Of a DNA stretch of 64,000 nucleotides, positions 21,201 through 24,200 are shown in pieces. A program made the translations under genes and the position numbers. Location of the stretch: the NCBI GenBank assembly GCA_035084275.1, contig CM068753.1, forward strand, positions 7,068,001-7,132,000. Reading direction: 5' to 3'. The notes below the pieces were generated by a model, which had not been told where the DNA came from, did no database searches, and saw only the letters and a list, made by a program, of their open reading frames with translations. This stretch comes from Hydrolagus colliei. Taxonomy: Eukaryota. Numbering within the stretch: the stretch's first letter is position 1; each line of letters begins with the position of its first letter.

Positions 21201-24200
21201 CCCCAAAACAAACCTGGACAGGACTCCTGGTATTGTAGACACACTGTGTTGAATGTGTAGCTAAACCTTGGAATGTCTGTCCTGCCCGGCAGCTCTGCAG
21301 ATATCGGAGCCGAACAGCTCGAGTGCCTGACCAGCCCCAGCAACCGGACGGCAGAGCTGCTCGTCACAGTGATGTACGGAGACTCTCCCCGCAGCCTGAA
21401 CCTCGTGCGCTACAGCTACACAGAGAATCCCAACATCACCCTTGTCTCTCCGGCCAGCAGCTACCTCGGGTGAGACATGACCAGAGCTACACAAACAGCA
21501 AAATATTCACCCGCACTGTGTACTGCACCACACAGCTCCACACAGAGCAGAATAGCCATTGCGTACAAGGGAACAGCAGATGTTGGCAACAGCACACCAT
21601 GAAAGGAGCTTCACAATTCTAACATTTAATACACATTCGGTCTCTGAGAATGCAATGCTGACCTCGGCACCTATATGGCTGAAAGGTCAGCCTAGACTCA
21701 CAGACTGGGGCTGTGACCCATAACCTCTTGACCCAGAGGCGAGAGTGCTTCCCATCAAAGTAGGTGAACTGTTTAGAGGAATAACCCCTCCGCCCCCACT
21801 CCCCCACCACCCCCCGGTATTAATAGAACTATACACAGAGAAAAATAAGAGCCCAGATATGATCCACTGATCGCCGCTCAGGGTTCACTGCCCTGCTAAA
21901 TCAATGGAGGAACATTGAACAGGACACAGGGAGAGAAACATGTCAAAGCTGGCGGCAGGTGAGTGTGCGATGCGCTGTGTGTGACCGACGTCTGAGCCGG
22001 GGTCTCTTTCAGTGGCGGCCGCCTGATCAGTGTCCACGGGCAGAACCTGGACGCGGTGCAGACCCCCCGCATCAGGGTCCAGCTGGCGGTGAGGGAGCGG
22101 AGACGGCGCTCGGGCCCCAGACTGCGAGGGCGGACGAGGACACGGAGACTGATCACTGAGGGAGGGCCAAGCCCACTTACGGTGAGTGGGTTACACAGGC
22201 TGCAGCAGTGTGGGGAGTTAACATTAGTTGACGGTGGGGGAAGAACTAGGTAAATCATGTTAGTTTACTCGCAAGCAAGAGAAACCAGGTTCGATACTTG
22301 GGCAGGGCTTAAACCTTAGGCAAGTTTTCTTACTCCACATGCCTGTTTACCGAGGAGCAAGAACCTGATCGTTAGTTGATTGGCAGATCTCTTTCCAGGG
22401 GGTAATAATCCCTGTTAAAAAAAATAATAACTTAATCGCTCAATTCCATGATTTTTTGTGGATACTTCCGTGTGCAATTGGCTGCTAGGTTTCGCCCACA
22501 AAATACACAGTCAATCCATTTTATTGTATATTCTGTGAAGTGCTTTGAGATGTGCGGGCAGGTTGATAGGGAGTCAGCAGGTCAGAGAGATAGGAAGGGG
22601 CAAAGCCGTGAATGGTCTTGAAAGTGAGGACGAGGATCTTGAAATATGAGGATTATTTAAGAATTATTATGGTTCTGAGATGTTATTTAAATATATCAAT
22701 GGGCCGAATGACCTTCTGTGTGCAAATGTTTATGATTCTGACTGGCTTTAATGATAATAATCGGCCACAAAATATACAGTCAATACATACTTTACAATAT
22801 GTTCTGTGAAGTGCTTTGAGACGTCTCAGTGATGTGAAGGGCACTACATCAAATGCAAGGATAAAGCTTACACAGCGCCTGTCATGTAGTGCCTGCCACG
22901 TCTCAAAGAGTTTGCCAGGGTTTCACTGAGACATTATTGTGTATGTTGTGGGTGAGCGCAGTGGGCGTGTTTACCCTAACGCTGTTCCCTCTTGTTGCAG
23001 TTCTACGAGTGGTGTCGAGTGAACTCCTCCACCTTCATGACATGTCGGACGCCGGCGGTTGGCAGCCCGGTGAGCCACGGCTCCATCACCGTCCACTTCA
23101 TCATGGACAACCTCAGCTTCGACTTCAACCAAATCAGCCCCATTCCGTTCACCTATCAGCCCGATCCCCTCCTCAAGCCCCTCAATGCCGATGACCCCTC
23201 CAAGCCGTACAGGCACAAACCAGGCAGCGTGCTCTCTGTGGAGGTACTGCACATCAACACTCTTCCAATAAAGAAAATTGTACGCATAGGAAGCCACGAG
23301 TTTGAGATTATCTGAGCCTCTCTGTTTCCAATCTACACATAATCTCCAACCCTTGTAATTGGTGGAGTCTTGGAGCCTAGTGGTCAGTATGCTCCACTCT
23401 CAGGCGAGAGGACCAGGATTCAATTCCTAATCGGGGCGAAACGTTAGGCAAGTTTTGTTACCCCACACCCCTCTCACATGCCTCTGGGTTCATACTCACC
23501 TGTCAGTAAGTAGGAACCCGATTGTTAGTTGATTGGCAGATGCTTTCCGGCTTAAAAATCTCCAATAACAATAATAATTTGTCACTCTATACACTGCTGT
23601 TTGTGAGAAAATATTATTAAAAACAGTAAACAGCCATGTGGAGTAAGGAAACTTGCCTAAGGTTTAGCCCCTGGCCAGGAATTGAACCTGGTTCCTTTTA
23701 CTTGCGAGTGAGCTAACCACTATCCTACATGACTTGCCTTGATCTCTCCCCACCTTCAACTAATGTTAACCCCCTCACGGCTGCAGCCTGTGTGACCCAC
23801 TCACCGTCAGTGGGCTCGGCCCTTCCTCAGTGATCAGTCTCCGGGCCCTAATTATTATTGAATGAGTTGGCTGCTGTGTTTTGCCCACAAAATACAGTCA
23901 ATCCACTTGGCAATATAATCCTGTGAGGTGCTTGATGAGACATCTGAACAACATTGATAAGGCGCTGTATGTAATATTCCCTTTCCCGGCAGGGAGGAGT
24001 CTGGGGCGATTTTGCTTTTCACCGCATTATTCCCTTTTGTTTTCAGGGGGAAAACCTGGACCTTGCAATCACAAAGGAGGAGGTGGTGGCGATGGTGGGG
24101 GAGGGGATGTGTGTGGTGCGGACACTGACCGGAGATCACCTGTACTGTGAGCCGCCCCTGGAACAGCCTGGGCCCCGAGGGGGGGGCAAGCGGGACAGCA

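Follow-up and report, generated by a model that had tools for sequence, protein, structure and literature searches.

Editing-complementary sequences for ADAR exist at glutamate-receptor exons, and inverted SINE pairs flank exons that give rise to circRNAs. Long-range stems over splice donors have been described for the Drosophila gene CG33298 (PMC2724269) and, as PCCRs, for human genes (PMC8052449); these consist of short conserved boxes, with mutational rescue in the case of CG33298. At the DNA level, inverted templated copies are a known germline class attributed to microhomology-mediated template switching (MMB-TI; PMC8421209), and a four-point switch-and-return model describes how such copies create repeats capable of forming hairpins (PMC5453318). 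Two further sources bear on the gene and its repeats: plexin-B receptors are processed by furin-like convertases (PMC10452846), and the major repeat of the elephant shark genome is a tRNA-derived SINE (PMC1845163).

The locus compared here with these systems lies in the plexin-B1 gene of Hydrolagus colliei, which is completely contained on the + strand of the window, i.e. the whole 64-kb stretch of DNA that was analysed. Splice sites were positioned using the Callorhinchus milii protein as a guide, resulting in a gene model of 34 coding exons with an ORF of 5727 nt and a single terminal stop. Coding exon 16 (22013..22181, + strand) encodes the N-terminal half of IPT3 and a basic loop with the motifs RERR, RRRR and RTRR. 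Coding exon 17 (23001..23243, + strand) has a weak donor (GAG/GTACTG), and its product is 96% identical to plexin-B1 of C. milii, as against 70-77% for the proteins of sharks and rays. A preliminary description of this DNA had counted the two exons as 17 and 18; its length of 243 nt and phase 0-0 for the latter were borne out, but the numbering is one too high. The furin label it gave to the exon end is reasonable, as the RTRR motif aligns with the mammalian RRRR-V site; an upstream RRRS motif considered as the sole furin site was dropped for the same reason. Homologues were compared in a set of 125 vertebrate plexin-B1 sequences, from which 7 short fragments had been removed beforehand. Loop length was measurable in 95 of them, and 77 of these 95 carry an RX[KR]R motif. 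Among proteins P0050, P0132 and P0102, the basic loop is wholly missing in two fish database models, which are unverified gene predictions; in the third, an isoform from a gerbil, the loop is short and no RX[KR]R occurs in it.

The intron downstream of coding exon 17 contains an inverted copy of the end of coding exon 16 and its donor, as noticed in the preliminary description and now confirmed by self-BLASTN and global alignment. Self-BLASTN of the window matches 22137-22350 with 23849-23626 at 82.2% over 225 columns (E 7e-60). Global alignment of 22138-22350 with 23626-23848 yields 184 identical positions in 212 aligned columns and gaps of 11 nt and 1 nt. An identity of about 90% over the first ~97 nt had been reported, and 89 of 96 columns are indeed identical over 22143-22239; the reported bounds of 22143 and 23843 should probably be moved outwards, with the copy reaching 5 nt deeper into the exon. 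The proximal arm (22138..22350, + strand), regarded as the template, comprises the last 44 nt of the exon, the donor (22182-22187), unique intron sequence and a SINE head. In the distal arm (23626..23848, - strand), accordingly, the exon end and ACG/GTGAGT are accompanied by ~57 nt of unique intronic sequence and ~106 nt from the head of the SINE. Beyond the two arms, nothing in the window matches the part made up of exon, donor and unique intron. The pair ranks top by score among the 239 inverted matches in the window and is the only one of all 467 repeat matches (239 inverted, 228 direct) that overlaps a coding exon by at least 15 nt.

For comparison with other individuals and relatives, contigs from sequencing runs X5, X6, X7 and X12 were used (4 of 15 runs; DNA-type or unlabelled), X6 representing relative B. 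Genome-wide copy number was judged by contig depth only, and joints involving 23504/23637 were assigned to other SINE copies and ignored. In relative B (~1.6% diverged) the segment 23646-23835 is present on two contigs, with 2 differences each. Runs X5, X7 and X12 have zero depth at 23763-23843 and none of their listed contigs joins across; as contig records were filtered, we do not read this pattern as absence, although a presence/absence polymorphism in species A may exist. The contigs of relative C cease matching before the insertion site. An assembly artefact is an extremely improbable explanation of the copy. Among the listed contigs none spans the whole insert, as an artefact would predict, but the arms are unlike at 28 of 212 columns in addition to the gaps, relative B has 23646-23835 on its two contigs, and an X5 contig matches 23512-23655 without differences, i.e. 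30 nt into the insert (the bridging rule being 31 nt). This reading is largely refuted already.

The distal arm does not simply lie in unique intron sequence. Alignment with 12 other SINE pieces of the window shows that it interrupts a + strand SINE, here called S2. The preliminary description had placed a + SINE at ~23364-23610 next to the copy; the SINE is there, but it is not merely adjacent, because the copy sits inside it. Head and body of S2, the insertion target, occupy 23355..23609 (+ strand), and its 3' part follows at 23865..23980 (+ strand), restarting ~13 consensus nt beyond the point where the head stops. Both pieces are collinear with other SINE copies, so that ~13 nt are missing, and fillers of ~16 nt stand on each side of the copy. 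The left AT-rich filler (23610..23625) contains 15 nt identical to coding exon 30 (23610-23624 = 35065-35079, 11.4 kb downstream), for which the chance expectation is 0.4% by shuffling and 4% among AT-rich windows. The right AT-rich filler (23849..23864) includes an 11-nt stretch whose reverse complement occurs ahead of the left junction, at 23569-23579, with a chance of ~1% in both controls. These matches are weak hints of several template switches or of a second template. The SINE half of the copy was derived from a second SINE, S1 (22245..22553, + strand), which is high-copy in the sequencing runs: in 80 scorable columns 8 non-consensus changes are common to both arms, 6 are found only in the proximal and 3 only in the distal arm. 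Around box A of the SINE, 11 nt still present in the copy have been lost from the proximal arm. S1 itself stops at 22553, followed by a piece of a different high-copy repeat (22554-22643) and by a SINE 3' piece (22761-22862).

The copy is an inverted version of nearby sequence, and the flanks resume the original SINE after a small replacement, as in templated insertions. We therefore regard template switching in DNA repair or replication as the likely origin: the exon end, the donor and the SINE head would have been copied in inverted orientation into the neighbouring SINE. The insertions described in PMC8421209 and PMC5453318 are alike in several respects, namely the inverted nearby copy, the few replaced target bases, the possible extra short templates, the new hairpin-capable inverted repeat and a possible persistence in the germ line. 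They differ in that the present event is old and copied 223 nt from a template 1.3 kb away, beyond the range screened there (100 bp in PMC8421209). No clear microhomology was seen at the junctions, which at this age (intronic K2P distance 0.15) are not reliably readable. Retrotransposition, either as 5' transduction by a SINE or as a reverse-transcribed piece of pre-mRNA, could also join an upstream flank to a SINE head; the two fillers are loosely alike, as in a decayed target duplication, and the 15-nt match of the left filler to a downstream coding exon of plexin-B1 (0.4-4% in the two controls) is a further point in its favor. Priming of a retroposon would begin at the SINE 3' tail, though, and the copy stops ~106 nt into the SINE without such a tail. 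Target sequence was lost and no target-site duplication is present. The unique part is also single-depth in runs X5 and X6, so that no dispersed family of at least 85% identity exists. Because the tail is lacking and target bases were lost, we consider retrotransposition unlikely.

The intronic distance between the arms (0.15, K2P) is ~9 times the A-B difference, and by this measure the age of the insertion would be about nine times that of the split from relative B. The conservation check that had been proposed finds the copy in this relative, diverged by 1.6%, but gives no sign of constraint, at low power. Against B, 5-7 differences fall in 393 nt of the arms and 21-23 in 1336 nt of the flanks (p 0.65-1.0), the power being 0.23 if the arms evolved at half the rate and 0.57 at a quarter of it. 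Four arm differences could be placed: 22169 A>G (B and C), 23779 G>T and 23792 G>T (both B) and 22250 G>C (X5, which carries the same species label as the best-matching runs). Each contrasts a Watson-Crick pair with an A-C, C-C, A-G or C-U mismatch and none makes a G-U pair. Compensatory changes were found in none of these four, among the differences listed, with two further ones unplaced; a compensating partner change may lie among 72 differences beyond those listed. Over all 212 columns there are 11 G-U, 6 A-C and 11 transversion-type mismatches. In the intronic part G-U stands to A-C as 10 to 4. A G-U excess as a sign of selection was dropped, since G-U and A-C do not differ significantly (p=0.33); transcription-linked mutation bias could also produce such an excess. 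Identity is higher near the donor (89/96) than further on (92/111; p=0.037, with a boundary set after viewing the data), as expected from coding constraint on the exon side alone: a one-sided exon constraint model expects 10.1 changes where 7 are seen (P=0.20) and yields P=0.29 for the perfect 13-bp donor helix. Judging from these comparisons both arms have drifted, and there is no sign that pairing has been maintained, moderate constraint being compatible with the data given the low power.

The preliminary description had proposed that the arms form a duplex of ~200 bp covering the donor of coding exon 16, and RNA folding indeed predicts this to be thermodynamically favoured. In the MFE fold of 22013-24060, the copy pairs with 192 of the 213 nt of the proximal arm, including the whole donor. 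Opening the 9-nt donor is predicted to cost 23.1 kcal/mol, compared with 10.0 kcal/mol in a transcript ending before the copy, and the predicted pairing over this splice signal is stable. Seventeen inverted pairs within 3 kb occur in the gene, and this one, at -345 kcal/mol, is the most stable. A competition of the adjacent SINE for the SINE part of the distal arm, which had also been suggested, finds no support: in the calculations this part favours its source (-147.9 kcal/mol) over the adjacent SINE (-117.6 kcal/mol). The helix formed by the exon and unique-intron part (-194.7 kcal/mol) has no other partner, and the donor-masking helix would thus be independent of any SINE competition. Efficient donor masking in vivo needs short loops. 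As transcription reaches the partner only ~1.6 kb beyond the donor, the latter would mostly be committed to splicing first and normal mRNA would dominate. Molecules that do pair might yield low-level by-products, namely clustered A-to-I editing, some 243-nt circle and some use of an alternative donor at 22088.

This donor at 22088 was overlooked in the preliminary description and offers, on the model calculations, the best functional alternative to a neutral insertion. The candidate site GCG/GTGAGG (22086..22094, + strand; cut after 22088) keeps the reading frame and precedes the true donor by 93 nt; it lies ~50 nt clear of the duplex. If the duplex masks the 22181 donor, splicing could move to 22088 and produce a cleavage-resistant plexin-B1 that keeps the IPT3 strands. 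The site scores 7.6 bits, within the range of the gene's true donors, versus 10.7 bits for the true donor (matrix built from the gene's own 33 donors); an exonic GT of such strength occurs in 3 of 32 internal exons, in 2 of them in frame. Opening it is predicted to cost 4.0 kcal/mol with the distal arm present, compared with 23.1 kcal/mol for the true donor. Its putative use would delete 31 aa including all three RX[KR]R motifs, and the deletion closely matches the basic loop: the residues correspond to 42-72 of the C. milii domain model, where a low-confidence loop lies between strands 34-41 and 71-81. Database models without the loop exist in 2 of 95 homologues (unverified gene predictions). 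There is a precedent in Drosophila CG33298, where the choice of donor is switched by a stem over the proximal one (PMC2724269), and cleavage of plexin-B by furin-like convertases is functional (PMC10452846). A switch of this kind at plexin-B1 is nevertheless unlikely in our view. The arms lack visible constraint or compensation, the donor matrix rests on 33 sites, and the deletion would remove 2 residues of the next strand and leave no turn, in a structure model of modest quality (IPT3-IPT4 pLDDT 69.7, pTM 0.53; the other four models reach 47-54). The CG33298 stem (PMC2724269) spans 185 nt and is conserved across Drosophila, in contrast to a decaying pair over ~1.6 kb. That the chance duplication acts as an antisense switch, setting the ratio of cleavable (sheddable) to uncleavable receptor through RNA structure, seems quite unlikely.

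Very unlikely, by comparison, is a functional isoform made by looping out and skipping 23001-23243. The exon can be skipped in frame (243 nt, phase 0-0), its donor is weak (leave-one-out score 1.0 bit, second lowest of 33), the intronic part of the duplex would be stable alone (-245.5 kcal/mol) and looped-out exons show lower inclusion in human genes (PMC8052449). But the 22181-24047 junction of the original skip model uses the very donor that the full duplex would bury, and the loss would affect core IPT strands. Coding exon 17 corresponds to model residues 73-153, comprising about four IPT3 strands (71-81, 84-88, 100-107 and 110-113) and then the first two of IPT4, and it matches the plexin-A1 IPT region of a solved structure. 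The exon is kept in 122 of 125 homologues, the other 3 being database models that lack both exons or part of the exon, so that clean skips amount to 0 of 125. Likewise, the 16 proteins that cluster with 6 homologues include no isoform without it.

A functional ADAR substrate or circRNA-promoting element (a 243-nt circle, recoding such as Ser>Gly at 22170, or editing of the A at donor +4) is improbable as well, despite a geometry that soundly fits back-splicing of 23001-23243 on the model. The arms lie 1275 nt apart and complementary sequence is present in both introns flanking this one exon; such a flanking pair occurs at 4 of the 31 blocks of internal exons (31 and not 32, since coding exons 11 and 12 count as one), and the present pair is the strongest at -345 kcal/mol. 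In the MFE fold 10 of the 12 exonic A of the arm are paired, and editing would change the encoded residue at 8 of the 12. The A(22169):C(23817) mismatch, put forward as the geometry that ADAR prefers, does exist, but the argument drawn from it is not supported: relatives B and C as well as the copy have G at 22169, and the mismatch is thus a derived CCG>CCA change in H. colliei. Editing there would be synonymous, and its context is CAA; ADAR prefers UAG. The arms moreover show no constraint signal, and 17 inverted SINE pairs within 3 kb in the gene let low-level editing and circles be expected without function. At glutamate-receptor exons, too, an intronic antisense partner pairs with the exon end and donor over more than 1 kb; the plexin-B1 pair is unlike these in that it has no conserved target adenosine, an A:C mismatch that is recent and synonymous, and arms that are not detectably constrained. 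Like the SINE pairs around circRNA exons, it places complementary sequence in the introns on either side of an exon, but about half of it is unique exon and intron sequence, it covers the upstream donor, and its circle is putative. In favor of such activity, human genes show an excess of editing in stable long-range pairs, and of such pairs around circRNAs (PMC8052449).

Taken together, we consider it likely that the 223-nt segment is a templated inverted insertion, a scar that is tolerated and decaying and not a splicing switch under selection, probably with incidental dsRNA by-products. Several points speak against this reading. No other inverted pair in the window is as strong, and the predicted burial of the donor (23 vs 10 kcal/mol) makes some effect on splicing plausible. 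The copy has persisted for ~9 times the A-B divergence, and an in-frame donor closely matches the basic loop. The constraint test is weak, identity drops away from the donor, and G-U exceeds A-C by 10 to 4 in the intronic part. The 1.3-kb distance to the template exceeds the 100-bp range screened in PMC8421209, and clear junction microhomology is missing. If it acts at all, the plexin-B1 pair resembles a long-range donor-masking stem or an editing-complementary sequence. With CG33298 (PMC2724269) and the human PCCRs (PMC8052449) it shares an arm over a donor, an alternative donor outside the stem and an exon in the loop; in contrast to their short conserved boxes it is long, lineage-restricted and decaying. 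As a scar, the segment represents an ordinary case in which an error of repair or replication left a gene with an antisense version of one of its donors, and it indicates that, with the partner more than 1 kb downstream, a duplex as strong as the one predicted here over the donor can be tolerated for long. Should use of the 22088 donor truly depend on the duplex, a single mutational event would have created a new regulatory RNA structure and connected it to receptor proteolysis. Among the open-access papers listed in searches, none deals with this element or with a plexin-B1 isoform lacking the loop.

As a by-product of the inverted copy, an acceptor-like sequence arose at 23800..23833 (+ strand). 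It consists of CTCAC, which we take to be a branch-point-like motif, a pyrimidine run, the AG at 23829-23830 and then an in-frame TGA, and is thus a candidate poison acceptor with 23831 as first base. It scores 7.5 bits, a value reached by 29 of 1651 intronic AG sites. A search of 21500-24600 against Rfam at E<=1 gave a single match at chance level (mir-305, 21.5 vs 66 bits).

Some further splice-site variants were seen in the gene. A second acceptor-like site, 23993 (23973-23995), scores 11.3 bits compared with 13.0 bits for the true acceptor; it lies in frame 54 nt upstream of coding exon 18, and the 18 codons it would add contain no stop (read by eye). Within coding exon 17, an internal GT at 23069 (CCG/GTGAGC, window 23067-23075) is in frame and, with 9.5 bits, stronger than the true donor GAG/GTACTG (23241-23249). 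Relative C has 6 additional nt after 23245, altering the context of this donor, and runs X5 and X7 share a 6-nt insertion at 24274 that is absent from the window sequence. Coding exon 20 is followed by an intron with a GC donor (CAG/GCAAGT, 25309-25311), the best-scoring placement against the C. milii protein. Finally, a 33-nt inverted pair of 94% identity (26932-26964 / 27287-27319) flanks the 67-nt exon at 27172-27238.
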